Source: Octopus vulgaris (Eukaryota). From it: a stretch of DNA of 64,000 bases. Positions 1 through 62,757 of the stretch are shown in pieces; within the stretch, counting starts at the first letter, position 1; each line of letters opens with the position of its first letter. Under the pieces are notes generated by a model. The model saw only the letters and a list, made by a program, of their open reading frames with translations, ran no database searches and was not told where the DNA came from. Where the stretch lies: the NCBI GenBank assembly GCA_951406725.2, contig OX597816.1:12710001-12774000 (forward strand), in the 5' to 3' direction. The translations under genes and the position numbers were made by a program.

Positions 1-217
1 TTCTGGAGGCTCGGATTTACTCCATGATGTTGGCAGATGCAGTTCGCAAAACGTCAGGTATAAGCAACCAGTAGATAACACAAATATACACAGGTAGGAC
101 CGGCCTCCGTCTTCAGGGGGAAAAGATAGGTATCTACTTAATGTTTACATGCTAACACTACTGGCTGCATGTGCTTGACCCTTTGCGAATTACATAATGT
201 ATATATATATATATATA

Positions 218-535
218 TACAATATGTTACATTACTCGGTAGTCAAGATAAAACTCTGAGTTTCAGATGCCGAAGTGGAAATCCAAAACACGGCTGAGGT
301 TACGACCATTCGGTTATCGCGGATAATTTTTTAAATTTAGTGAAAAAAATGGACGAACGAAGATTCTATTTTTTCATAACGTTTTCAACATGTTTCAAAG
401 GCTGCAAATTTCCAAATTCGAGATTGAATAAGGAGACCATTTTGCAGCTTTCTTCAGGAAAATCCAGGAATTTAAAGTAATGTAACATATTGTATAGATA
501 AATTTCCTCTATTTACATAATATTGAGGCCCATGG
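218..535 (-). mobile_element. (TA)n-embedded PLE-like terminal-repeat remnant with two hammerhead motifs
   Basis: Bounded by inverted CAATATGTTACATTACT / AGTAATGTAACATATTG and flanked by (TA)n on both sides. Segments recur at 46680-46840. HHR motifs at 382-462 and 247-330. Confidence 0.6.
382..462 (-). ncRNA. Type I hammerhead ribozyme motif
   Basis: Minus strand reads TTTTC-CTGAAGA-aa-GCTGCAAA...TTTGCAGC-cttt-GAAAC-ATGT-T-GAAAA: 5-bp stem I, CUGAAGA and GAAA core, 8-bp stem II, palindromic ACAUGU stem III, GUU triplet. Confidence 0.7.
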
Positions 536-537
536 TA

Positions 538-600
<63 letters not shown>
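536..600. repeat. (TA)n microsatellite
   Basis: Directly visible; one of many TA/CA/CATA tracts in the window. Confidence 0.95.
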
Positions 601-4157: not shown

Positions 4158-5147
4158 TCACATATAAGTGATTATCGTACGCAGAGAATATATTGTTCAA
4201 ATAATGGTGATAAAGATGTCGAAGTGCTTAAACGAGCCTTATGTGACATCATGCGACAAACAATGCAGAACGAAAAGCTTTTCTATAATAACGAAAAATA
4301 ATAATAATACTCATTGTTATGAGGAGATAAATGTGTGTGTTTGCGTGCGTCACTCAATAATGTCTTTGTCACTCAATAAAGTCTTTATTATTAGGTTTTT
4401 TTGTGTGCTTTCGTTCTTCGGTTGATTTTTGATGGCTTCTTTATGAGTAAGAAACAATGCGAGGCAGAAATAGAGAGGGACATAGAGGCAGACGTACTGA
4501 GTCACAAACAAACAGAGAAAAATCAACAAGAAAGAGGAGGAAGAGCTTTCGTAAAAAGAAGGGAAGAAATATATATTTGTAAAGTCAAAGATGAAAAGAC
4601 ATGAAACGGTGGGATGGCGGATGAAAGAGAGATGATAGAAAGAGCTGAGGAGGAGGGGAAAGAGAAATACAAAGTGAAGGAGACGTCCAGGAATAAACAG
4701 AGAAATCAAAAACCCGAAGAACACGTGTATGAGTAACGTGTATTTGTCACTGTTTGCACTCGGTTTAATCGGCTGTTTATTAGCTTATAATATGAAGAAG
4801 GAAAAGGCCAAGAAGGTTTGATCAAACAAATCCACCAATAAAATTCATATAAAGAAATATCTACAGTATTTATTATCCCACGTTGATAAAATCAATATGG
4901 CGATATGTATGTTTGCGCGCGTACGTATTTATATTTGTGTGTTGCGTTAATTCCATGCATGTATACCCAAGACCTCCGCTGACGTTGCTCTCTTCCCCAT
5001 CGACATATTGCATCCTATCTTTTCTACAAAAGTCATGCAACCCCCACACATTTTCTGTCTTTCTCTGTTATACTCTGCTCTATCTTTATTTCGCCTTCTT
5101 TTACCTGTAATCTTTCCTTTCTTTCACCTGTACACCATTATATCATC

Positions 5148-5565
5148 TTATTTCTTCATTGCCTATAAGGGGTTAAACATAGAGGGGACAAACAAGGACA
5201 GATAAACAGATTAAGACGATTATATCGACCTCAGTACGTAACTGGTACTTATTTAATCAACTCCGAAAAGATGAAAGGCAAAGTCGACCTCGGCGGAATT
5301 TGAACTCAGAACGTAGCGGCAGACGAAATACTTATTTCTTTATTACCCACAAGGGGCTAAACATAGAGAGGACAAACAAGGACAGAAAAACGGACTAAGT
5401 CGATTATATCGACCCCAATGCGTAACAGGTACTTAATTTATCGACCCCGAAAGGATGAAAGGCAAAGTCGATCTCGGCAGAATTTGAACTTAGGACGCAG
5501 CGGTGGATGAAATACCGCAAAGCATTTCGCCCGGCGTGCTAACGATTCTGCCAGCTCCCCGCCTT
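5148..5565 (-). mobile_element. SINE family B, head-to-tail dimer
   Basis: Full monomer plus a headless second body joined at GAAATA(A/G)GTATTTCGTC; TSD-like tacaccattatat.atc. Confidence 0.88.
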
Positions 5566-8242: not shown

Positions 8243-8347
8243 TTATAGATGTTTTCGATCTAGTTTGGATTTTTTTGCCATCAAATTTGAATTCTTTGCA
8301 ATCAAATTTGTTTGCAAAGAATTCAAACTAGATCGAAAACATCTATA
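8243..8347. repeat. Fold-back inverted repeat
   Basis: 24-bp perfect arms TATAGATGTTTTCGATCTAGTTTG / CAAACTAGATCGAAAACATCTATA, with internal duplications. Confidence 0.9.
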
Positions 8348-8379
8348 AAATCACAGAAGTCGCTTGTGTAACTTGCACT

Positions 8380-10575: not shown

Positions 10576-10634
10576 CTTAAGAGAAAGGAGGAAGTCAGGA
10601 AATGGATAAAAATTATTTGTTTAGTATATTCGAC

Positions 10635-10800
10635 CCTTTCAGGGATTCATTATGAATGATTTCATGGAAAAAATTCATACGTCTTATATACACTGTTATG
10701 TATGCAAGTTGAAAGGAAAATTTGGAATCGAATTAGATTCTTTTTCAATAAAAGGCACGCATTTTCTCAAAGAAATCATTCATAATGAATCCCTGAAAGG
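10635..10800. repeat. 29-bp perfect inverted repeat with ~108-bp spacer
   Basis: CCTTTCAGGGATTCATTATGAATGATTTC at 10635-10663 and its reverse complement at 10772-10800. Confidence 0.9.
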
Positions 10801-12171
10801 CACAAAATTGCTACGTAGTTAATTTTTATCGAAATTTTGACAACTTCATTTTCTATAACATAAAAAAAAAACCTATACAAACACCACTTGAAACAAGCCA
10901 TAAATACACAAAGGCATGTATGTTTGCATATACATAATTTTTATGAGTACATATATATATATATACATACATGTGTGTATGTACTTGTGCGTGTATGTGA
11001 GTGTGTGTGAGTGTGTATACAGACATATATTAAGAACGATGTAGCATTCATAATGTCAGCAAATAGTTGCAGGCTTTATTCTAGTTTAATCAAACCGATG
11101 CCATTGTTTCCTTAGCAGCGGCGCAATGAAACTGTTTTAAGCGAATCGTCTGCATCCGCCTTCGTTAATGAACTAACGAGCAAGAAGGATACAGTCTAGC
11201 TTTGTTAATTTCAGTCCTATCATCCTATACAGCTGACTGACAGAGTAAAAAAAATGATAGACGTTGAGATAGCTTGATTCATTCACGTATGAGTACGTGT
11301 GTATGCATGAATATACACACAGACACAGCCATATATATATATATATATAATGAAATTGAGAGAGACGTTTATTATGAATAATTTATCGTTAGTAGTTGTC
11401 TCTTCAAATATAATAAAAGAAAATAGATATCGCTTCAGTTTTGCAGTTTCTGACAATGGTACTCGCGTAAAACATTATCATTTGTCTTATTATCAGCAGT
11501 CTTGCTGCATATCACGGAGTATTGAAATAGACCGTGAGGAAAATAATAATATGGGAAATTTGGATAGCGTATTATATGATAAAATGGCATATGTTATCTT
11601 ATTAAAGACCGAGAAGAACGTGAATAGATATACACACGCACACACGGCCGCACACACACACACACACATGCATGTACGCCATTACACAGAAAATCTAGTG
11701 GTGGTCGGGAGACGAGGATTTGTCGCGGCGTCCTTGTGCCAACTACCCAAGGTCACCTTGGAATGAAGGGTCGCAAGAAAATAATGATGATGAAACAAAC
11801 ATTTATCAGAGACAGTTGAGAAGAGCTTAATGTGGTCATGTGCGACAAAAAATGGTAGATGGAACTGAAAAGAAATGCAAAAGGGCATTAAAACTAACGG
11901 GAGGGAAACCCAGTTTGCAAGTTTGCAAGTTTTTGTGGCGGCCTTGTTACCCAAATGTTCCGAATTCAATCTCCACTACAGGTGGCATTTAAATAATAGG
12001 AAGATGACACCCAAGAGTCACTACTTAGCTGGGCCCGGATCCTTTCGGTTGTCAGGAGCGAAAGGGCCGAAAAACTTGTTTGATGGGAGTTCTGAAGATT
12101 TCTCCTGCAATCTGCTCGCTCCGTATCGAGTTTCTACATACCGAAGAGTAACAGAGACAGAGGGAGAAAAC

Positions 12172-12300: not shown

Positions 12301-13127
12301 CATATAGAATTATTTTAATAGCATCCGTTACATAAATGACCGATATGTGTTGTTAGGGAAAAGGTTTGCGTGAGCAATGCATCTATGTTCTGTGTGTGTG
12401 TCTGCATGAACTGCATACATGTTCCAGTTTTATTAAACTGCCTCAGCGAAGGATGGACTGCGCTGTACGATTACCAAATTTTCCCGCAGCAAAATTTTAG
12501 CTACGAATTTCCTGGCCATGATATAAATCAATTCCGCATGATAAAAAAGCAAACCTGACATTGGAAGAATTTGAACTCAGATGATACAGAGCTAGCTGAA
12601 ACAGGTATTTGGGCAAGTATCTATTCTTATAACCCAGAACTAACCAGTATAGCTGTGGCTTAAAATTTAGTTAACGGACGACGCCCGATGTGTATGTGAG
12701 TACATGTGCACGTGTGGGAGTATGTATATGTGTACGTGTTTTTGTCTTTATGCATACGTCTATTTTTCACTGATATGTATTGGTTTAGGGTCTAAATATC
12801 CATAAAACATAAGGCCAGTAATTGACAAATGAACTTTATTAAATATTTCTTCTGCGGAAATTTATAGGCATTATATGCACTAGTGGTTAGCTACCTGTAA
12901 GCCACGACGCTGTTGTTCACAACTGTGATATGAAATAAAATATATAGCCCTTTAGTTTCGTGTTTATGAATAATAGCGAAAGATCTCTGTATATAAAAAG
13001 TTACGTGTTACTTTTTATAGTTTGCTGTTTAAGTCGTATTACGACAGTTTGAATGCGTGGGGCTGCCAAACAACAAATAGAGAGTGAGTGAATGGCAGTA
13101 GCAAAATTAAAATGAGAAACTATTATA

Positions 13128-13545
13128 GGCGCAGGAATGGCTGTGTGGTAAGTAGCTTGCTAACCAACCACATGGTTCTGGGTTCAGTCCCACTGCGTGG
13201 CATCTTGGGCAAGTGTCTTCTGCTACAGCCTCGGGCCGACCAATGCCTTATCAGTGGATTTGGTAGACGGAAACTGAAAGAAGCCTGCCGTATATATGTA
13301 TATATATATATATATATATGTGTGTTTGTGTATCTGTGTTTGTCCCCCTGGCATTACTTGACAACCGATGGTGGTGTGTTAACGTCCCCGTCACTTAGCG
13401 GTTCGGCAAAAGAGACCGATAGAATAAGTACTGGGCTTACAAAAGAATAAGTCCCGGGGTCGAGTTGCTCGATTAAAGACGGTGCTCCAGCATGGCCGCA
13501 GTCAAATGACTGAAACAAGTAAAAGAGTAAAAAAAAAAAAGAGAA
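13128..13545 (+). mobile_element. SINE family A, full length
   Basis: GGCGCAGGAATGGCTGTGTGG head through to the GTAAAAGAG tail. Confidence 0.92.
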
Positions 13546-14194
13546 AATAGTTAGTTGTATTACACTGGCCATCGTGGGACAGCTATAAAAAGTAAGCAAT
13601 GAAATATGCGTTAATAAGGAATGACAATTCAACTTAAAAATACCAAACGTTTAAGGAAAACGAACAAATGATATTGTGGCATGTGCCTAGATATTTAATT
13701 GATCTGAAGTTTGGCATGATTTTACAAAATATCGGCGGTGGTGGTCATGGAAAACTAAGCGTTTTGCGAAGAATATTATAATTTGGAATTTATCAGTTTC
13801 AGTATTTCTATATTAAAACATAGTTACGCAATTTATTCCATACTCAAATAAACTTGGTTTGTCATATTTGACCTTTCAAAACAAAATGTTTCAGCGCTGT
13901 GTAATTAATTTCGCATGTATATATACATATATAAAATACATACGTATATATACATACATACGTACACTGTGTGTGGGGTGTCTGTGGGGGGATGTATGTA
14001 TGTACATATATGTATGTGTGTGTATGTGTGTATGTATGTGTGTGTGTGTGTGTGAAAGACTTCAATTTGGTATTTGTATTCTAAGAATGTTGAGGTGGAA
14101 ATGTATATTGAAATACCTGTGTTTCTTAAAGAGCCTGTATTCCCATTGCCATTAAGAAACACACGCAATTGTTTAACTCATTTCATTTTATTTC

Positions 14195-14502
<308 letters not shown>

Positions 14503-15230
14503 GAGAGAGAGAGAGTTACACATGTTATCCAAGTGACACTGGGGTACACAAATATACGATGCCCAATATATCTACACGTCGGATAAGGGTATATAAGGCA
14601 CATGCACCAAAGCCATATGTGCGCGACATGGTGATCTCATATCAAGATAAACAGTGCATGACCAGTTACAATTTTCCTCAGGTTGAGTAGCCTATCCTGC
14701 TCAGAAGGTTCTTGAATAAGGTTTTTTTTTGAATGATGTTGAAGGAAGCAACTATGTCTCCAGCGGTTAATTATTCCAACTCCAAACAATCCCTCTCAAC
14801 ACATGGCTATGAAATCTGCCCCACTACTCCTGCTCATGACCTTACAGGTGGGGCCCAGTTAGAATTTTCTTCAGGTTGAGTAGCCCATCCCGCTCAAAAG
14901 GTCCCTGAATAAGGGTTGTTTAAGGATGTTGAAAGAACCACCCATGTTTCCAGAGGTGAATTATTCAAACCCAAAAGAATCCCTCTCAACACATGGCTAT
15001 GATGCTCCCCCACTAATTCTGCTCGTAGTCAGAGATGCACATATCGTCAGCCATTAAGGGACATGCTCAACTGGTTAAGGTCAAACAACTGACAAGCAAA
15101 TCTGTGGTATTGAGCAGAATATTTGCTGTAGCCCATCTTTTACACCAAGGTAAAACATGTACATGATAACACTTTCAGTCAGTTAAGATCAGGAGCAATA
15201 AGAACCACCGCTGATACGGCACCAGAGCTT
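14503..15230 (-). mobile_element. AAT-associated ~555-bp non-coding element (family E) with internal ~190-bp duplication
   Basis: Reverse complement of 47897-48451; 3' end abuts (ATT)n; 14663-14840 duplicates 14845-15030. Confidence 0.85.
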
Positions 15231-20920: not shown

Positions 20921-20964
<44 letters not shown>

Positions 20965-20967
20965 TAT

Positions 20968-22322
20968 AGGGGTAAAATATAAAAAATCAACGAAAATGCA
21001 TATTGTAGATATAAAAAGGCTACTTATGATAGGTAGTGATATAAATATACATTACGTGGTTTAAATAGAGTATTACGTGGTTTAAATTGAAGAGTTAGTG
21101 GTGTTCTGTATTGCGTTGTGTGTTCACATTTAGTTGAGGGAGAAATTTGTTGATGAAAAATGACTCTTTATTCAACCTTTGTTGCATTGTGGTGTTCTGT
21201 GAGCATTGGTAAAAGGGAAATATTTGGAAATTGGGATTAAGATTCTTGGCACATCTTTCTATTTGTTCACTCACCTTTAACTGTCTGTATTGTGGGTGGC
21301 GGATTTGCTCTTTGTGAATGGTGAATCTTTGACGGAGCGAAATTCCTGTTTGTCCAATATAGAGTTTACCGCATCTTATGCATATCATGACATAGATTAT
21401 ATCTGCCGAGGAATAGGTGAAATTTGATTTGATCTTAAATATTTCTCCTTGTTTGAATTGGAATTCTGAACCCTCCAGAAGGTGGGGGCATGTTCCACAG
21501 TTGGAACGTCCACATTTTGTCACTTTTGGCTCAGTAGTTAGTGGGTAAAGTCTAGCGCTGGTTAGTATTCTTTTCAGTGACTTCGGTTGCTTTTTTGCTT
21601 TTTATAATTTTATATGAGCTTAAAATTTCGTTCATCGTTTTGTCTGCTGTGAGGATGGGGAGGTTTTGGGTGATGATGTTGAAGGCTTCGTTATTTCTGG
21701 GGTTATGTGTGGAGATGTACGTGAGTATTTTTAAGTCTCGTTTAGTATTACGGCTAGTTTTCCTTAATCTTTGTATATCTATTCCCTTAGCACTTTTGAT
21801 GCCTTCATTTACTAATGAGATTGGGTAGTGTCTTTTAGTTAGTGTAGATCTAAGTTCAAGGAGTCTATGTTCATGAGTGTCTGTATCGGAAACTATGGTG
21901 CAGATTACGTGAACACACAACTCAATACAGAACACCACTAACTCTTCAATTTAAACCACTAAACCCTATACACTTTCTACATCACTCACATTTCTAATTC
22001 CTGAACTACTTACCTCCCTTATACATATAATCCAAAACTACTTACCTCCCTTACAAATTATCTCTTCTCTCAGGAACTATTAGACCTGACACCGTTTACT
22101 AACCGGTGTTATTCAAACGATGAATAGCTAATGCGAAAACCAATTGGTTCGTTTCAGTCTCTTACCTTATTATTATTATTATTAACTTCTTATAATCATC
22201 AATAATAATGACCTTTTTGACTAGTAATACTCTAAATGTATATTTTTGTCACTACCTATCATAAATAGTCTTTTTATACCTGCAATATGCATTTTCGTTG
22301 AATTTTTATATTTTCCCCTTAC
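20968..22322 (-). mobile_element. 5'-truncated Penelope-like element (Neptune-type) with inverted pseudo-LTR
   Basis: 21076-21128 is the reverse complement of 21909-21959, and 20968-21053 of 22235-22320; flanked by (TA)n; encloses RT-thumb and GIY-YIG frames. Confidence 0.88.
21095..21905 (-). pseudogene. PLE RT C-terminus, Cys-rich linker and GIY-YIG endonuclease (frameshifted)
   Basis: RLLELRSTLTKRHYP; KCGRSNCGTCPHL; IIYVMICIRCGKLYIGQTG..LRQRF..H; RLNKESFFINKFLPQLN. Confidence 0.88.
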
Positions 22323-22360
22323 ATTTCCACGTGTATTTTTTTTTTTTCAAAACATATTTC

Positions 22361-22412
<52 letters not shown>

Positions 22413-26301: not shown

Positions 26302-26396
26302 TAATAATATTATTATCATTATTATTATTCAAGTCAGTGCCTGGAATTGAACTCGGAATCTTGGGGTTAGTAGCCCACGTTCTTAACCATTACGCC

Positions 26397-26399
<3 letters not shown>
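26098..26399 (-). mobile_element. tRNA-head/(AAT,GAT)n/hammerhead module, complete copy
   Basis: Minus strand: TGGCGTAATGG (A box)...GAGTTCAATTCC (B box), then microsatellite, then ACAC-CTGATGA-A-GGCTG..CGGCC-GAAATGTT-GTATT. Confidence 0.8.
26152..26198 (-). ncRNA. Minimal type I hammerhead motif
   Basis: CUGAUGA and GAAA core, stem II GGCUG/CGGCC, GUU triplet; C15.2 changed to U. Confidence 0.65.
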
Positions 26400-26463
<64 letters not shown>

Positions 26464-26464
<1 letters not shown>

Positions 26465-29400
26465 TATGCATTAGGTAGGCCATCTCAAGAGAGACACACC
26501 GCAAACTCTTACAGTATATGGAGAACACGGAATCAAGACAGTAGGCCCTATTTGGACGAGAACAAATTAGCAAATGTGAGGAGGGATATCTTTAGAAATA
26601 ACAGACTCACAGACAGTGAAATAAGCGCGATCAAGCACGCAACGGAAAATGACATAAATATAAGACACAAAGGAAATGAAGAATCAGATGAACAGTATAG
26701 CCCGCCACGAGGCTTAATTGAAAGACTGCCATCTGACCAAAGTACGCAAAGGCCTGAAGATACAAGAAATTCTATTGTACCTGTTAAAGATAGCCAGGAA
26801 AACGAAAAAACAACAGTAACTGAAGATCTCGCATTTGCTGAAGAACACAGAGAGTCTATGGCAGAAATGAGGCAGAAAATCCTGAATACGCTTGAAGTTG
26901 TAAGACATACAAGTATGAATGATAGAGAACCACTTCATAAACTCTCAAATTAAACCAAAATAAAAAACAAATCCAAATTGGCAACTATGTAACAAATGAA
27001 ATAATACGAGAATTAAAACCTGATTTTACTGAGTTAAATGAAATTATTTACGCTTCTGCTAGGGCAATTGAAACCAGCTGTATGCCCCCGAAAAAACAAA
27101 GAAAACAAAACCTGGGAAGAAATCAAACCTGGAGAAGTAAAATTGAAAAAGAGATTGAATTTATGAGAGGGGAAATATCAATATTAAATGAACTAATATG
27201 TGGAAATGATGTAAGATCCAGAACAGGAAGAAAGATGAAGAGAAAATTTGGATCCTCACCAAGAGAAGAACTGATATCAATAAAAGAAACGCTGAAACAA
27301 AAAGTCCAAGCAAAAGCCCAAAGAATACGAAGATTTGAGAAGAGAAACAAGTTTTACAAGCAAAATAAGCTGTTCACATCCAATGCCAAAACATTCTACA
27401 GAGAAATAGGGAAGGAGAAAGTAACCGTTAAAGACCCCCCACCCATGGAAGAAGTTCAAAACTTTTGGAAAAGGATTTGGAGTGACAAGAAGACGTACAA
27501 CATAAATGCAGACTGGATTATACAAACTGAAGGATCCTACCAAAATTTACAACAACAAGCATGAGAAGACATCACAATAGCAGACCTAAGAAAGGCACTC
27601 ACGAAGGCCCATAATTGGAAATCCCCCGGTAAAGATAGGGTGCCGAATTTCTGGCTCGCATCGCTCCCATGCGCACACGGTAAGCTAGTTCAGCTGCTCA
27701 ATGGAATTATGAGAGACCCAAAGAAAACACCTGAATGGTTAGCAAGTGGCATTACTTACCTACTCCCAAAGAATAACGAAACCAACCTTCCAAAAAACTA
27801 TCGGCCTATAACCTGTCTATCCACCACGTATAAAATCCTAACATCTATCCTGGCGGAGAAAACATATGCATTCATGGAGAAGAACGATATTTTCCCCATT
27901 GAACAAAAAGGGTGCCGCCGAGGCTCTTACGGATGCAAAGATCAACTGCTAATCAATCGTATGATCCTTGAGAACTGTCACAACAAGCGCAGAAATCTCA
28001 GCACCGCATGGATTGACTATAAAAAGGCCTTCGACAGTATACCGCATCCATGGATCTTGAGATCGCTGGACATCTTCAAAATTTCCCCTGTGATTTCAAA
28101 CTTCCTGAAACACAATATGTCGTTGTGGAATACGAATCTCCAATTATACCACTCTAATGGAGTACTTGCCTCAGAAAATATAAACATCAACTGTGGAATT
28201 TTTCGAGGTGACTCACTTTCACCTTTAATATTCTGCATAGCCCTAATACCCCTTACAAGTGAATTAAACAGAACAGGGTATGGGTATAAAATTGCCAATA
28301 AAAAAATAAGCCATCTATTTTATATGGATGACTTAAAACTTTATGGTAAAGACAATAATGAACTTGAAGGCCTATTGCGCACCGTGAAGGCATTCAGCGA
28401 TGACATCGGGATGGAGTTTGGACTTGAGAAGTGTGCCAAGGCAACTTTCCAGAAAGGGAAAGTGAAGACCACAAATTCAGTCGTGTTAGATGTTGACACA
28501 GTCATAAGAGAGCTTGAGCAAGAACAAACATACAAATATTTAGGGATAAATGAAGGCTCTGGTATTCAGCATGCAAGCATGAAAGAGGAAATCAGGAAGG
28601 AATGTTATAGGAGAGTTCATGCAGTCCTGAGATCTGAACTAAATGCACGTAACAAGGTGTTAGCTCTAAATTCCTTAGCAGTTCCAGTTGTTACTTATAG
28701 CTACAATGTGTTGAACTGGAATATGAGTGAAGTAAAGAATATAGATAGAAAAATACGCAAGCTGCTGAGTTGTAATAGGATGCACCACCCAAAGGCAGAC
28801 GTAGATCGCCTTTACCTTCCCAGAGCCCAAGGAGGTCGAGGCTTGATCCAATTTGAACTAGCTTACAAAACAACCACAATTGGACTGGCAAAATATCTCG
28901 AAATATCGAATGACTGGATGCTAAAGCTCGTGGAAAATCACGAGAGACGAAAGAAGCTTCATTCTATCATAAAGGAAAGCAAAAAATTTGCTATTGATCT
29001 CGTGCAGGATACCCAAACTGAACAACCCGAGGGAAGTACGGCAACTATTGTTGCAAAGAAGGTGAAAATGATGGCAATGAAAAAAGCGCACGAGCAATTG
29101 GCTGATAGGTGGGAGGAGAAACCTCTGCACGGCAAATATGTGACCCGCAGCAAACAAGCTGATGTTGACCAGAAACAAACCCATCAGTGGCTACGGAGCT
29201 CAGGGCTAAAAGCAGAGAGCGAAGGTTTCATCCTGGCTGCTCAAGATCAAAGCCTATTAACTCGGAACTACCAGGCCAATGTGATGAAAAATGGAGCAGA
29301 CCCAAAATGCCGATTCTGCAACGACATGATTGAAACAGTGGACCACCTAATCTCTGGATGTAAAGTCTTAGCACCAGTGGAGTATAAATTAAGACATGAC

Positions 29401-30048
29401 AGAGTTGGCCAATATCTCCACTGGCTAATAAGTCGGCATTACAATATCAAAACTGCCGGCAAGTGGTATAATCACCACCCTGAGGCTGTAACTGAAGGAG
29501 AAAATGTAACCATTCTGTGGGACTTTCCAGTACATACAGACCGAACCATCAAGGCCAATAAACCAGATATTGTTGTGAAAGACCAAAACAATAAAGTTTG
29601 CTTATTGATCGACATGAGCATCCCCTGTGATCATAATATCTCAGCGAAAGAGTTTGACAAGCTCAGAAAATATAAAGACCTACTCATTGAAATTGAGAAA
29701 ATGTGGCATCTCAAGGCGGTTACAATACCAGTGATCGTAGGAGCACTAGGAATGATCAAGAAGGGAACCGAAAATTATATGAGAATGATCCCTGGCTTAC
29801 CATCCCTGCAAGAAGTGCAAAAGATTGTCTTAACTGGTACATCACACGTATTGAGAAGAGCATTGTCGATGTGAGAACTGTTGCTGCTCATGTATTTTAA
29901 TTTAACTTTAAAAAAAAAAAAATTAAAAAAATGAACGAACTACTGAGTTTGGTTTAATGGCCTACCAATGTATACTATGAGTTTCTTTGCCCTAGGAGTC
30001 GGGAAGACACTCGGCAAGAAATGATAACAAATTTGAAAGAAGAAAAAA

Positions 30049-30079: not shown

Positions 30080-30260
30080 TCGAAAAATAACTTGGAATGA
30101 GAATCCAGGTTCGAAATTTCCCCAAGATATCTGATGAGAGCTGGAGTGTCTATCAGCCGAAACGATGAGTTAACAACAAACAAGATGAGGACAAAATCTG
30201 TCAAAATGTAACTAATGTAAATAATGTACATAATTCCTCATCTCTTAAATATGGAACTGG
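30052..30260 (+). mobile_element. (AAT)n/hammerhead half of the module; inverted partner of 26098-26399
   Basis: CATCGAAAAATA..TTCCCCAAGATAT-CTGATGA-GAGCTG..CAGCC-GAAACGAT-GAGTT..AAATAT.GAACT; HHR at 30126-30171 with GUU changed to GAU. Confidence 0.8.
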
Positions 30261-31703
30261 ATGAGAAGAAAATCAATCCTAGAAGACAAAAGAGGTCGAA
30301 ATGCAAGTTGGCATTCTCAGGTGACTGATCTGTTAAAATTATTGATGAAAAATAAGGATTAAAATCAATGTAAGAAAAACAAACGAATTTATCTGACAAC
30401 CCAACGCGTGTGTATATGTATGTGTGTCTGTATGTATGTATGTGTGGGGGTATACATTCATGCATACATACATACATGCATACATTTATACATACATACA
30501 TATACCCTTACACGTATATGGCAACCATTGTGACATTCTTGAAATCATAGCTGTACGCATGCGTCGTTGTCTGTGCGAGTGTATGTTTCTATGCGAGATA
30601 ACAACACGGATGCACAGAAATGGACGCACGTGCGAATTCATGTAGCAATTCATGTAGCAAGATGTAACAAGCCTCAGCATCCAGTTGTGTATTAATGTAC
30701 ATGTAGGATGACAGAAATCGCAAAAGTTTAGTAGGTAAAAATATACGAAGTCCAGGATTTTAGATTAAAACAAGATGGTCGCATATTTGGAAAGTTACGA
30801 TGCAGTAAAAATGTTCCGGCATTTTAAAATCACAAAATTATAGAAAAAATAACACGAAATGTTAAACTGAACGATGAATACAAAATATCAAATGCAAATT
30901 ACAATGCTGTACTATTATAAAATTCTAAATTTATAAAATTATTGTATTATCAAATTTGAAAGAATGAAATTATTAAATTATCAAATTTAAAATTCATGAA
31001 TTAAAAGATTATGAAGTATGAAATTATAAAATTATAGAATTTTCAAATTATAGAATAGGAGAATTTTCAAATTATAGAATAGGAGAATTTTAAATGTGTG
31101 CGTGTTAGGGTTCTGGAAAATGAGAGAATTATGATGGTAATATGTGTGGAGGGTCACAAACGCTTAGCGATTAAGGGAGAGATATGATTCTATGTGGAAA
31201 CGATTCAACGCAGTGTGTTGTCTTTTAAATAGGCCTGGTGTAATTTTGTGTAGTGCTGTCATATAACAGACGAGGAAAAAGCCCCCCGTCCTTGGACGGT
31301 GCTGAGTTCTCAAACATTTAAACCAAATTTAACCTAACTTTGAGACACCAGCAAAAGAAGAAATAAGGATAGAATTTTTTTCTATTCCAAAGAAAAACGG
31401 TTTTATTCACACAAATATGCAAACGAATAGTTTAAAGTACCAGTAATGATAAGGCTGTTGACTGGGAGGACACAAACATGGTTTAAACAGTAAGCTTGGC
31501 AGGAAAGAAACGTGTCTTTAAGCAGTACAAAAACAACAAAAAATGGAAGGTGCATTTATGCACAGGCTGACGGAAGAAATGCAGGACAAAAACGGCTTTA
31601 TAGGTCGCATTCTCACCTGGAATCGATTTTTGTAATTTTTTCAAGACTTATACACGCCCTGATACCGTCGGTATCTACATATCAAATTTGAGCGCAATCG
31701 GAT

Positions 31704-31935
31704 GGAGGATTTTAGCACAAGACCAAAGCCTCCCTACCAGAAATCACCAAAAACATATAATGAAAAGAAACATAACAAGTAACTGCAGATTATGTGGAGA
31801 TGGACAAGAAAAAATAAATCATATTATCTCTGGCTGCCCAGTCCTGGCTAAGAAGGAATATATTCACAGACACGACAGAGTTGGAACCTACATACACTGG
31901 AAGCTATGCCAACACTATGGAATAACAACAGAAGA
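31704..31935 (+). pseudogene. Internal fragment of a second R4/Dong-like LINE (CCHC and RHD region)
   Basis: AQDQSLPTRN..CRLC....EKINHIISGCPVLA..YIHRHDRVG.YIHW aligns by eye to 29236-29450. Confidence 0.88.
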
Positions 31936-31946
31936 CACACACACAG

Positions 31947-32005
<59 letters not shown>

Positions 32006-32655
32006 TCCTAGAAGACACACACACACATACACAGACAGAACAGATTTTATATAATAGACTAGATAGCATCAGTTGCTTTTAGTTAAATTTGAAGCGTTTT
32101 CAAAAGGTAACTTAGTATATACAGGGGAAAATAGTTCGAATTTTGCGTTTTGGTCAGCCAGGGGTGGATCAATGTAAAGAATTTGTCTCTGGTGCAAATC
32201 AATAACGAAAGATTCTATTGTGTTCTGGTGCATGAGCTTACATTTGATGTTATATCTCAGGCATTTTGGCGTCTTTAAGGACAAAATATATTTGAAAAAG
32301 CTTTTCTTTTCTTTCTGAAAGAACGGATGTAATGGTGGATCCTTAGATTTCCAGCTGTTCTTCGTCAGGGCAATAAAAGCTATGCATATATTGTTATTCT
32401 CGACAAAGGTATTTTTACTCGGTGTATCGCAGATTTTGGAGTGAAGCATAGAACAATTATGGAGATTGCTACAGATCTAGTTTATCCTGGATTTTCGTTA
32501 TTCTTGACTGATAGGCATTTGGTATTGATTTAGTCATTTGTCTGGTGAAGCTATATGTGCAGCGATAACTGTGTTTAACAGTTCCCGTTGAATATCAGAT
32601 GGTCATGGATTATTATACGAAAATAGCAAGTGCACGCGCACAGGACAACTATGTA

Positions 32656-41870: not shown

Positions 41871-42022
41871 GCAGTTTTTTTTTTTGTCGGCAGCCAAAAA
41901 ATACCGGCATTTTTTCGAACAATTTTCCAGAAAAAATTATTGATTATTAAGTATTGCTAATTTTTTCTGGAGAATTGTTCGAAGGAATGCCGGTATGTTT
42001 TTGATGCCGACAAAAGAACTGC
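41871..42022. repeat. ~65-bp imperfect fold-back
   Basis: TTTTGTCGGCA..ATACCGGCATT..TTCGAACAATT.TCCAGAAAAAATT versus its reverse complement. Confidence 0.85.
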
Positions 42023-45860: not shown

Positions 45861-46582
45861 ACTGTTCTACACAGTCTTAAATTTAAATGCAATCTTGTGG
45901 TATGAGTTCTTCTCATATGGCTTCATGCCTAAACTCGTCATAAGCTTTCCAAAAGCAGAAATAGTTGTAGCATTCATGATACATAAAAGCCAATGAAAGT
46001 AGAAATATATACAAATAGAAATATATGCAATGAGATCAAATATGCATTAGATGTTTCATTGTGTCTTTGTTTTAAAGTAAATACATTGTTCTGCAGTGTC
46101 ACTTTGTGTAGTCACGTATAATAGATAAACAGATGACCTATTGATGGGTACGTCTCTTCACGAAAGGTTAAGCAGCTGATGATGTTTGTCGCGCTGGTGT
46201 GCTAGACAAATATTCATTCTATAACTCCTGGGAAAATGTCAATAGCAATGATAAACATTTACTGAATAGAACGGAACGCAAATGCTTGACAAATTGATTC
46301 TATTTATCCCATTAATAAATAAATATCTATTGTTTATATTTCAGACGCCTTCGTGAGTATGTGGTTACATTGTCGGTTTTAGAAATCATGGTTTCCAGTT
46401 CAATCGGGAGGGAGACACAGTAACATAAGTAAGTATCTTTTACAGCATAGATAACCTTAGATCGATTTAAGCATTGTTAGCAAAATTTGGCCGGTTGAAA
46501 GATACTAGGGAGGAGAAAAGCGGACGCATATGCATTACATACACACACGCTCACACCTATGTATATACGTATATATACATAT

Positions 46583-46641
<59 letters not shown>

Positions 46642-46644
46642 TAT

Positions 46645-46905
46645 TATTGGTAAAAACGGTAAGTTAACAGAAGAAAGAAAGAGGCCTCAATATTATGTAA
46701 ATAGAGGAATTTATCTGTAAAAATAATATGTGACAATCACTCGGTAGCCAAGATAAAACTCTGAGTTTCGGATGCCGAGGTGAGAATCCACACCACCATC
46801 TCTTCAGTTCTCAGGACATCTGAAAAACGCTATGAAAAAAGACCGTTATACAAAGGGAAATTACTGTATTATAGACCGCTAATTAAGATAAGGTTAAAAG
46901 TTCAT
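46645..46905. mobile_element. Second copy of the TA-embedded HHR element (rearranged)
   Basis: 46680-46740 matches the reverse complement of 476-533; 46725-46790 matches 221-285. Confidence 0.65.
46752..46812 (-). ncRNA. Type I hammerhead motif
   Basis: GAGAA-CUGAAGA-GAUG..CAUC-C-GAAAC-UC-A-GAG-UU-UUAUC; stem III ACUC/GAGU, GUU triplet. Confidence 0.65.
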
Positions 46906-47319
46906 AGAGAGAGGGAAAGAGACAGAAGGAAGAGAGAGAGAGAGAGAGCGAGAGAGATAATGATAATGAGAAATGAAGAGACTTGACACAGCCTGTTGTA
47001 CTAAGAATAGAGAGGAAAATGCACTAAAATCACTTGATAAAAGTTTATCATATAAATGGAATGTTCATGAAACCAACTGGTTTCAGCTTTTATGGATAAT
47101 CATGTCATGGTTTTCTAATTAAGACGCTTAAATTTCATATTGTTATAGCCATATGATGTTATAGCTTTGAGATGTCATTACTAGGTGTCGTTAGCAATAA
47201 CAAACGCCATAATAAAGGAATGTGCTTTACAGTCACATGAGAGATGATAAATGAAACATTTAACTGTTTTCAGTTAACAATAACAATAATAACGATAATA
47301 ATAATAATAATAATAATAA

Positions 47320-47812
47320 AACTACACGTGCGAAATAATGTGACAACAGAAATAAACGGACCGGTACCCTACGAAAATGACGACCGTCAAAATAATGGGC
47401 CGGACGTTGTACCTCATGTCCCGCAATTAAAACCCAAAAGACGTAAATGGACACGTGAGGAATACATTTCTATCTTACACGCATACTTCACAGCAATGCT
47501 CTACCCACAAAATGAAAATACAACAACACATACATATAAAATATGGAAGGAAAATAATAGAGATATAGACTTGGATACAGCAATGAACCCTAATAAATTA
47601 GCTAACGTACGAAGATAAACACCAGGACTTACAAACACATATAACATACAGAAAATTGCACTACTAGGCACTGCACACATCCTACGCAGAACACTTTCCA
47701 TACAGTAACCATCAGAGCATCACAACAAATCACAGCACATACCCAAGGCACACAGAGCTGCGCTCGGTAGTGAAGTGAAAGCACGCTATAAAAATAAAAA
47801 TAAAACTACTGA
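47320..47812 (+). mobile_element. Internally deleted R4/Dong-like element (N-terminus fused to C-terminus and 3' UTR) in (AAT)n
   Basis: KRRKWTREEY..YKIW..NKLANVRR joined at ~47615 to TPGLTNTYNIQKIALLGTAHILRRTLSIQ*; both parts match the ends of the 26464-29874 ORF. Confidence 0.88.
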
Positions 47813-53829: not shown

Positions 53830-53953
53830 AAACCACAGAAAATGATAAATTCACGAAAGGAATGAAAATTAAAAAGGTTTACCATCTCAACTTGAGATGG
53901 TAAACGTTTTTAATTTCCATTCCTTTCGAGAATTTATCCTTTTTTTGTGGTTT
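53830..53953. repeat. ~60-bp-arm palindrome with 1-nt loop
   Basis: ..GTTTACCATCTCAA-C-TTGAGATGGTAAAC.. extending to AAACCACA / TGTGGTTT. Confidence 0.9.
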
Positions 53954-54531: not shown

Positions 54532-54567
<36 letters not shown>

Positions 54568-54570
<3 letters not shown>

Positions 54571-54993
54571 CGCTGGAGTGGCTGTGTGGTAAATAGCTTG
54601 CCTACCAACCACATGGTTCCGGGTTCAGTCCCACTGCGTGGCATCTTGGGCAAGTGTCTTCTGCTATAGCCCCGGGCCGACCAATGCCTTGTGAGTGGAT
54701 TTGGTAGACGGAAACTGAAAGAAGCCTGTCGTATATATGTATATATATATATATATGTATGTGTTTGTATATGTTTGTGTGTCTGTGTTTGTCCCTCTAG
54801 CATTGCTTGACAACCGATGCTGGTGTGTTTACGTCCCCGTCACTTAGCGGTTCGGCAAAAGAGACTGATGGAATAAGTACTGGACTTACAAAGAATAAGT
54901 TTCGGGGTCGATTTGCTCGACTAAAGGCGGTGCTCCAGCATGGCTGCAGTCAAATGACTGAAACAAGTAAGAGAGTAAGAGAGTAATAGAGAG
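54568..54993 (+). mobile_element. SINE family A, full length
   Basis: Matches 13128-13545. Confidence 0.92.
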
Positions 54994-55524
54994 TATAGAT
55001 ATATAGCGGCATACATACACTTTGGTCTCTGATATATGCAATGGAAAGAAGTGGAGAATAATTTAATTTTGTGCGCTTATATGTATGAAAAAGAAAAAAA
55101 ATTGACGATATGTTTTCACTGAAAAATGTTTATGCCTCTTACTTGAACTGATACAGCATTGGTATACAGATACTCAAGGTCTGTTTGACATATATAATTT
55201 ATATAAACATAAGGGAACAAGGAAACGAGTTGCTCTAAGTCTGTTGTACTAAAAGAAAATTTAATATATATGTAGCTGTCTCTCTCTCTCTCTCTTCAGA
55301 CACACACATAGACACACTAATAAATATCTAATAGGCTAGTTGCTGGAAGAAAAGTGTTGATACTGCAGTAATTTCTAATTGATTCATGTCATGCCATATT
55401 CAACATGGAACCATGATGTAGATGGGATATTGTCAAGATTCCAAAACACATAAATTCGTCAGTTAGATTTGGGACTTAAAGCATTCAAACCAGATCAATT
55501 CAAATCTATTTACAATGTAATTGT

Positions 55525-62350: not shown

Positions 62351-62757
62351 AAGGCGGCGAGCTGGCAGAACCGTTAGTACGCTGGGCGAAATGCGTCGCC
62401 GTATTTCGTCTGCCGTTACGTTCTGAGTTCAAATTCCGCCGAGGTCGACTTTGCCGGTCATTCTTTCAGGTTCGATTAAATAAGTACCAGTTACGCACTG
62501 GGGTCGATATAATCGACTTAATCCGTTTCTCTGACCTTGTTTGTCCCCTCTGTGTGTAACCCCTTGTGGGTAGTAAAGAAATAGGTATTTTTTCTGTCGC
62601 TACGTTCTGAGTTCAAATTCCGCCGAGGTCGACTTTGCCTTTCATCCTTTCGGGGTCGATTAAATAAGTACCAGTTACGCACTGGGATCGATGTAATCGA
62701 CTAAATCCCTTTGTCTGTCCTTGTTTGTCCTCTCTGTGTGGGCAATAACGAAATAAG
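62351..62757 (+). mobile_element. SINE family B head-to-tail dimer
   Basis: Monomer, then GAAATAGGTATTT junction at ~62580, then a headless second body. Confidence 0.92.

Follow-up and report, generated by a model that had tools for sequence, protein, structure and literature searches.

What is the element that lies between two runs of (TA)n at positions 218-535 of the 64-kb stretch analysed here (the window), an AT-rich eukaryotic DNA rich in microsatellites and interspersed repeats, and what could its two tandem hammerhead motifs do? A preliminary description had proposed either that cleavage at both hammerheads could release a defined, retrozyme-like RNA, or that the unit is a pLTR with several hammerheads from a TA-targeting Penelope-like element (PLE). 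We consider it fairly probable that 218-535 is a dead, 5'-truncated, TA-targeting PLE, probably of the Hydra clade, in which the core of the downstream hammerhead (HHR-B) is broken and which likely acquired the upstream hammerhead (HHR-A) from the 3' end of a different PLE. It is thus likely an ordinary PLE 3'-end remnant of a known kind, with two unlike HHRs as its one unusual trait. The features of this copy (copy 1) and of a second copy at 46.7 kb (copy 2) are collected in Table 1.

Table 1 Features of the element at 218-535, its flanks and its second copy in the window.
Feature	Position	Strand	Basis
Left flank (TA)10, likely target microsatellite	200-219		Last TA common to inverted repeat
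Sense-copy 3' end, 34 nt from HHR-B cut to (TA)n, no tail	218-251	-	Copy-2 alignment
HHR-B, Hydra-PLE-like hammerhead, type I	247-318	-	Homology to copy 2
AT-rich spacer	319-381	-	Copy-2 alignments
HHR-A, minimal type I hammerhead	382-462	-	Descriptor scan, folding; no other copy in window
13-nt leader; putative 5'-truncation point and head-to-head junction 475/476	463-475	-	Inference
Inverted copy of the element's last 19 nt, right arm, 19/19	476-494	+	Self-comparison
PLE-type tail: 36 nt as in copy 2 (34/36) plus 5 unshared nt	495-535	+	This end only
Right flank (TA)33	536-600		Repeat scan
Second family copy	46683-46840	-	Sequence homology, descriptor scan
Copy-2 tail	46683-46717	-	Match to copy-1 tail
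Copy-2 HHR-B, intact core CUGAAGA 46807-46801	46812-46752	-	Descriptor scan
Copy-2 upstream stretch	46813-46840	-	No HHR-A core

Two unlike hammerhead motifs on the minus strand

HHR-A has an intact CUGAAGA core (457-451), a stem I of UUUUC/GAAAA (462-458/386-382), a stem II of eight contiguous pairs (448-441/408-401; pair probability 0.89) and, on its 3' side, GAAA at 396-393, the palindrome ACAUGU and a GUU triplet with U17 at 387, giving a predicted cut at 387/386. The minus-strand motif of the preliminary description at 462-382, with its core, 8-bp stem II, ACAUGU and GUU, was thus recovered in full, and none of 300 shuffled windows held its equal. Its helix II is separated from the core by 2 nt on the 5' side and 4 nt on the 3' side and lacks the G10.1-C11.1 pair, and its stem I pairs weakly (probability 0.02); the active fold costs 6-9 kcal/mol.

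HHR-B retains stem I (GAUAA/UUAUC, 318-314/251-247) and a complete 3' half, with GAAA at 264-261, GAAA-CUCAGAG-UU at 264-252, a stem III of ACUC-A-GAGU, and a GUU triplet whose U17 at 252 gives a predicted cut at 252/251. Its core at 313-307 reads CCGAAUG (U4C, G8U and A9G), and about 11 extra nt follow the core, within the 5' strand of stem II. The stem I, 3' motif and corrupted 5' core noted earlier were therefore present, and HHR-B spans 318-247, where about 330-247 had been given. U4 and A9, like G8, are required for hammerhead cleavage, and HHR-B of 218-535 is predicted from its sequence to be inactive. According to excerpts of one study, a PLE hammerhead no longer cleaves once G8 is changed (PMC11167929).

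The two predicted cut sites are 135 nt apart, in agreement with the positions first proposed. HHR-A and HHR-B could not be aligned with each other (best local scores 18-19), which bears out the earlier reading of two different hammerheads on one strand.

An inverted 3' end and a one-sided tail

The unit had been described as bounded by a 17-bp inverted repeat and (TA)n. The (TA)n flanks were confirmed; the repeat, by contrast, measures 19 bp (218-236/476-494; 17 if the shared TA is left out) and does not bound 218-535, since 36-41 further bases lie past its right arm. Because copy 2 has this arm and the 36 nt past it as one continuous terminus, the inverted repeat is not the boundary of the element, and the unit therefore consists of a sense copy (475-218) joined head to head to an inverted one (476-530). 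From left to right, the layout is (TA)n, the sense copy on the minus strand, the inverted 3' end with its 36-nt tail, and (TA)n.

As described in the available text of PMC8557442 and PMC3846280, PLE insertions carry an inverted 5'-truncated copy and a tail of 30-40 bp, the tail representing the gap between two neighbouring reverse transcription start sites (excerpts of PMC11167929). At 218-535, an inverted 5'-truncated copy lies beside the sense copy, the 36-nt tail is found at one end only, and a type I HHR lies near the 3' end or pLTR, the HHR-B cut falling 34 nt from the end (with the core intact in copy 2). The same inverted-copy layout occurs in a PLE at 21-22.4 kb of the window that bears a GIY-YIG domain. 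The idea of a multi-HHR pLTR of a TA-targeting PLE was thus supported as regards the PLE end, by the inverted 3' copy, the 36-nt tail, (TA)n and the Hydra-type HHR-B.

If 218-535 is such an insertion, an autonomous partner's RT-GIY-YIG protein would have nicked AT-rich DNA, reverse transcription would have started at two neighbouring RNA sites, one with a tail and one without, and the two products would have been joined head to head, all as in published PLE biology. One product would have halted at 55 nt and the other been extended to 258 nt. HHR-A would have come in by a template jump or a nested insertion, either during the insertion of 218-535 or earlier in the lineage of this copy; if acquired earlier, it may have replaced a decaying HHR-B. 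A transcript of 218-535 would be cut weakly and at most once (387/386), provided that it forms an A-A dimer or is helped by protein, and would release no 135-nt piece.

A second copy at 46.7 kb

BLAST, nhmmer and part-wise short BLAST searches of the window returned copy 2 as the only relative of 218-535. The PLE at 21-22.4 kb and a four-copy HHR family at 26-46 kb were rejected as its kin by sequence comparison within the window, and no copies came from GTDB genomes in two exact scans, as expected of a eukaryotic repeat.

The preliminary description held that HHR-B is intact at 46752-46812. Its core there is indeed intact, yet stem I contains a G-A mismatch and keeps 4 of 5 pairs. Copy 2 lacks an HHR-A oriented like its HHR-B, so that the tandem is present in one of the two copies, and neither has two intact HHR cores. 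The (TA)n run at 46558-46644 begins 38 nt past the copy-2 tail; these 38 nt (46645-46682) are absent from copy 1, purine-rich on the plus strand and unmatched elsewhere in the window.

Identity between the copies is 62/71 over 291-221 and 28/31 over 251-221, whereas upstream it is 24/41 over 348-306, with 348-341 colinear (8/8) and 340-319 at 7/20. The drop upstream of 306 fits, as far as alignment can tell, either a mosaic structure or the descent of the copy from a lineage whose HHR-B was already decaying. Within HHR-B, 264-252 is identical to copy 2 at 13/13 positions and the core at 5/8. When the broken 5' half was aligned to the copy-2 core in an anchored test, with the segment picked post hoc, only 6 of 10,000 random windows did as well; under a looser test 636 of 6,000 did, which is not significant. 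Decay of HHR-B is therefore preferred to its having been severed by a junction at 291, the anchored test favouring decay and the loose one being without significance.

Upstream of its HHR-B, copy 2 contains a stretch, 46816-46840 on the plus strand, that resembles 393-369 on the minus strand, the part of copy 1 with HHR-A stem III, cut site and 3' flank; the stretch is oriented oppositely to HHR-B. As good a match was found in 19 of 6,000 random windows and 55 of 10,000 AT-rich windows, and the resulting p of 0.003-0.006 is uncorrected although several alignments were tried. A continuation of the match into the spacer was rejected, 2,445 of 10,000 random windows being as good; it ends after 25 nt. 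The stretch and its counterpart could pair at -22.3 kcal/mol, compared with -4.7 within copy 1. The match could reflect the joining of a B piece in inverted orientation to a sense piece from the HHR-A cut, an internal inverted repeat of the family, or chance.

Probable affinity to Hydra-clade elements

In the sections of PMC8557442 available to us, the Hydra clade is defined by the ORF motifs RWK and DKT, a CxCX5C linker and the lack of CCHH, together with RT phylogeny. No ORF is joined to either copy, and PLE or Hydra membership is therefore not proven by protein; tblastn of 14 PLE proteins, obtained with a non-Hydra query, matched the window at 21.1-21.9 kb only. Judged by its sequence features, 218-535 resembles the end of a Hydra-type PLE and is a candidate member of that clade.

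Insertion into (TA)n is seen at both flanks of copy 1 and 38 nt past the tail of copy 2. This preference is listed for 26 of 27 Hydra families (PMC8557442 File S2), and it is not clade-specific, since (TA)n is also listed for Naiad families. HHR-B, compared by eye with File S2, has a 9-nt quasi-palindromic stem III and an extra base before GAA. By our count by eye in the rows of that file, a 9-nt stem III is found in 20 of 26 Hydra rows, an additional C or T ahead of GAA in 19 of 26 and ACTC-N-GAGT in 5 of 26; as far as the paper's accessible text goes, these are traits shared by Hydra elements and not its authors' definition of the clade.

Searches with motifs of the 218-535 family gave no match in the supplements of PMC8557442 (four motifs), PMC13282606 and PMC8967140 in the form available, in which line-broken FASTA can hide matches. 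The Zenodo repeat library of O. vulgaris could already contain the family.

Origin of HHR-A

We favour, as the rather more probable origin, the acquisition of HHR-A by a template switch or a nested insertion. HHR-A and HHR-B cannot be aligned, copy 2 is without HHR-A, and identity between the copies falls from 62/71 to 24/41. Both routes are touched on in the PLE literature accessible to us, which describes a tendency of PLEs to land in or next to other PLEs (PMC6765202) and discusses template jumps for them (PMC3846280). Copy 2 may, for its part, simply be truncated short of HHR-A, and the 25 nt beside its HHR-B that resemble HHR-A hint, at the level of sequence, that what is linked to A is a regular part of the family and not a one-off.

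The strongest alternative, which we regard as unlikely but to be taken seriously, is that the pLTR of the parent PLE natively held two working hammerheads, A then B, that the B core was lost here after insertion, and that copy 2 consists of an inverted B piece and a sense piece starting from the HHR-A cut. Both motifs do lie in the same orientation within an otherwise clean PLE layout, the firm part of the match between 46816-46840 (+) and 393-369 (-) starts at about 387/386, as a cut template would leave it, and colinear similarity of the copies extends to 348/46840 (global p of about 0.03). Against such a native pair, the copy-2 match stops after its 25 nt without running on into the spacer and its significance is uncorrected for the several alignments tried (p 0.003-0.006), both cores are intact in 0 of 2 copies, the stem III sequences of A and B cannot cross-pair, and a single HHR is given for each Hydra family listed in PMC8557442 File S2.

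A bolder form of the native pair, which we think doubtful, would be a Hydra-type PLE family with a native tandem of unlike HHRs, each dimerising only with its own kind, in which tandem transcripts would be cut at two sites 135 nt apart and copy 2 would be the scar of reverse transcription running off at the HHR-A cut. If that were true, the copy-2 scar would be evidence from within a genome that PLE hammerheads cut the transposition template.

Proposed excision of a small circular RNA

The retrozyme-like proposal, that cuts at 387/386 and 252/251 free a 135-nt RNA that is circularised and re-inserted by PLE proteins, was not supported, and we consider it very improbable. It drew on the two same-strand HHR motifs 135 nt apart and finds an echo in reports that animal retrozymes descend from PLE pLTRs (excerpts of bioRxiv 10.64898/2026.07.22.740005) and form circles (excerpts of PMC7229834). 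However, the core of HHR-B is broken by changes in three conserved bases, no head-to-tail array exists at 218-535 or at 46.7 kb, and neither copy has two consecutive complete HHRs; the known monomers, as given in excerpts of PMC7229834, are 150-450 bp repeats of one HHR. A circle would hold only the 5' part of B and the stem I strand of A, and would rebuild no hammerhead, HHR-B stem I needing UUAUC where the circle junction offers GAAAA. The 135-mer also folds like its shuffles (z 0.23).

The behaviour of the two motifs as dimers adds to this. Minimal PLE hammerheads are reported in the available part of PMC4209133 to cut poorly, and only as dimers formed through the stem III palindrome. Computed stem III duplexes here came to -4.6 kcal/mol for A-A, -7.4 for B-B and +0.9 for A-B; given the last value, A and B could not activate each other as a dimer. 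None of HHR-A, HHR-B in either copy, the 135-mer and the 239-nt unit folded better than shuffles (z -0.74 to 0.59), and forcing the hammerhead fold costs 6-10 kcal/mol.

Unlikely readings: inverted-repeat transposon or chance hairpin

Hardly credible to us is a MITE-like DNA transposon at 218-494 with 19-bp terminal inverted repeats and a TA target duplication: the inverted repeat is perfect and TA stands at the left end, though a duplication is unreadable inside (TA)n, but the right arm is followed by 36 nt that adjoin this arm directly in copy 2 as well, which places the arm inside a longer terminus, and copy 2 has a single arm. To our knowledge, hammerheads are not a trait of MITEs.

The least credible reading, that HHR-A is a chance hairpin beside a chance CUGAAGA, could appeal to its lack of an Rfam match, its single copy, the absent G10.1-C11.1, its poor stem I pairing and its folding no better than that of shuffles (z -0.74), but it meets a core, long helix II, palindrome, NUH and helix I that are all in register and that no shuffled window equalled. 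HHR-A was the top of nine candidates listed by a hammerhead descriptor scan of the window, whose sensitivity was incomplete (of the four copies that make up the other HHR family it recovered two, and an earlier version missed HHR-B). With thresholds chosen when HHR-A was already known, a motif with stem I ≥5 and stem II ≥8 occurred in none of 300 block-wise dinucleotide shuffles of the 64 kb, and stem II ≥8 alone at 0.033 per shuffled window. Rfam gave no matches at the gathering score over the whole window, and the 22 and 6 weak matches at E ≤10 included none from a hammerhead family. At 59695-59660 (-), CUGAUGA is followed 17 nt on by GAAAC, a core pair that the descriptor did not accept.

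Other elements in the window

At least three PLE-type families occur in the window. The PLE at 21-22.4 kb is decayed (GIY-YIG domain, Pfam E 6.9e-7) and shows inverted-layout arms at 20964-21053/22235-22324, the inverted copy alone carrying an additional 40-45 nt or so. As a whole (20964-22363) it is a 5'-truncated element inside (TA)n, with ORF remnants at 21095-21950 on the minus strand and an inverted copy with a tail; it has a CxxxxCxxC linker and is Neptune/Nematis-like by that motif. About 270 nt of 3' UTR are gone from its sense copy and kept in the inverted one, and in that retained part, near 22120-22160, lies a decayed hammerhead-like stretch with the palindrome AACCAATTGGTT.

The four-copy repeat at 26-46 kb has HHR cores at 30131 (+), 45729 (+), 34484 (-) and 26192 (-). 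It is a short repeat with the standard minimal PLE hammerhead CUGAUGA-A-GGCUG...CAGCC-GAAA-CG-UU and a mean column identity of 77%, and several copies adjoin trinucleotide microsatellites. Two small elements (24120-24160/24365-24410 and 36635-36710/36840-36924) have long inverted ends with a CUGANGA word in each arm and no proper GAAA box; they are possibly decayed inverted pLTR pairs or MITEs. Self-comparison gave more imperfect palindromes at 8243-8348, 10605-10830, 41879-42018 and 53830-53953.

A near full-length, stop-interrupted non-LTR retrotransposon, which we take to be Dong/R4-like, occupies 26387-29874 (+) (RVT_1 E 1.7e-28; best relatives 68% identical); it starts in an (AAT)n run, and further pieces are found at 31604-32011 and 47241-47618. 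SINE-like repeats are abundant, at 5147-5515, 62401-62740 and 14662-15024 and as a repeat of about 400 bp with about 12 copies in the window (for example 13123-13553 and 54559-55005); some are tandem dimers of 184-190 bp.

Significance

In the supplement of PMC13282606, as far as available, PLEs are given as covering 6.83% of Octopus vulgaris, in 190 families. The element at 218-535 is one of very many PLE remnants and would matter if the pair of A and B were heritable. For one PLE tested in vitro, excerpts of PMC11167929 report that cleavage was unneeded for insertion and that no reads ended at the cut, and Craig et al., in the text available of PMC8557442, ask whether HHRs merely parasitise PLEs. 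With a family that has two unlike HHRs or swaps them, truncation counts per cut site could test the role of PLE hammerheads from genomes alone.

Comparison with known systems

Our search of the literature, which took in few of the subscription papers, found no report of two unlike same-strand HHRs in one endonuclease-type pLTR. Multiple HHRs occur in a PLE-related element in the Terminons of bdelloid rotifers, which are giant, endonuclease-less and telomeric; 218-535 shares with them the presence of more than one HHR and none of these three features.

With the metazoan non-LTR retrozymes, as described in excerpts of PMC7229834 and bioRxiv 10.64898/2026.07.22.740005, the element has in common its non-coding nature, low GC, type I HHR and PLE-pLTR ancestry. 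It differs from them in having no tandem repeat, in that its HHRs are unlike and one is broken, and in a distance of 135 nt, below their 150-450 bp.

The minimal PLE hammerheads, as presented in the available part of PMC4209133, resemble HHR-A in the 5-bp helix I, the long helix II, the palindromic positions 15.2-16.2 and a predicted need for dimers. HHR-A is without their conserved G10.1-C11.1, and its helix II region spans 54 nt. They are mostly dispersed as single remnants, and the dual motifs reported there lie 100-700 bp apart on opposite strands, whereas HHR-A and HHR-B are unlike and on the same strand.

The closest likeness is to the Hydra-clade PLEs, which, in the available text and File S2 of PMC8557442, share with 218-535 the insertion into (TA)n and a 3'-terminal position of a type I HHR, a short distance from the end. 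The file gives one sense HHR row for each of 25 Hydra families, and in comparison with the families listed there, 218-535 has a longer stem II, no ORF, and a second, unlike HHR upstream that is not seen in them. The ACTC-A-GAGT-T of Penelope-3_HM is identical, by eye, to that of HHR-B. Copy 2 shares 16 nt with Hydra-1_Obim of Octopus bimaculoides, with one gap, over stem I, the core and the start of stem II (again by eye, on the sequence available). The distance from cut to end is 34 nt in the 218-535 family and 36 in the Hydra-1_Obim consensus, and the two differ in stem II, stem III and the 3' end, a relation of sister families and not of identity.
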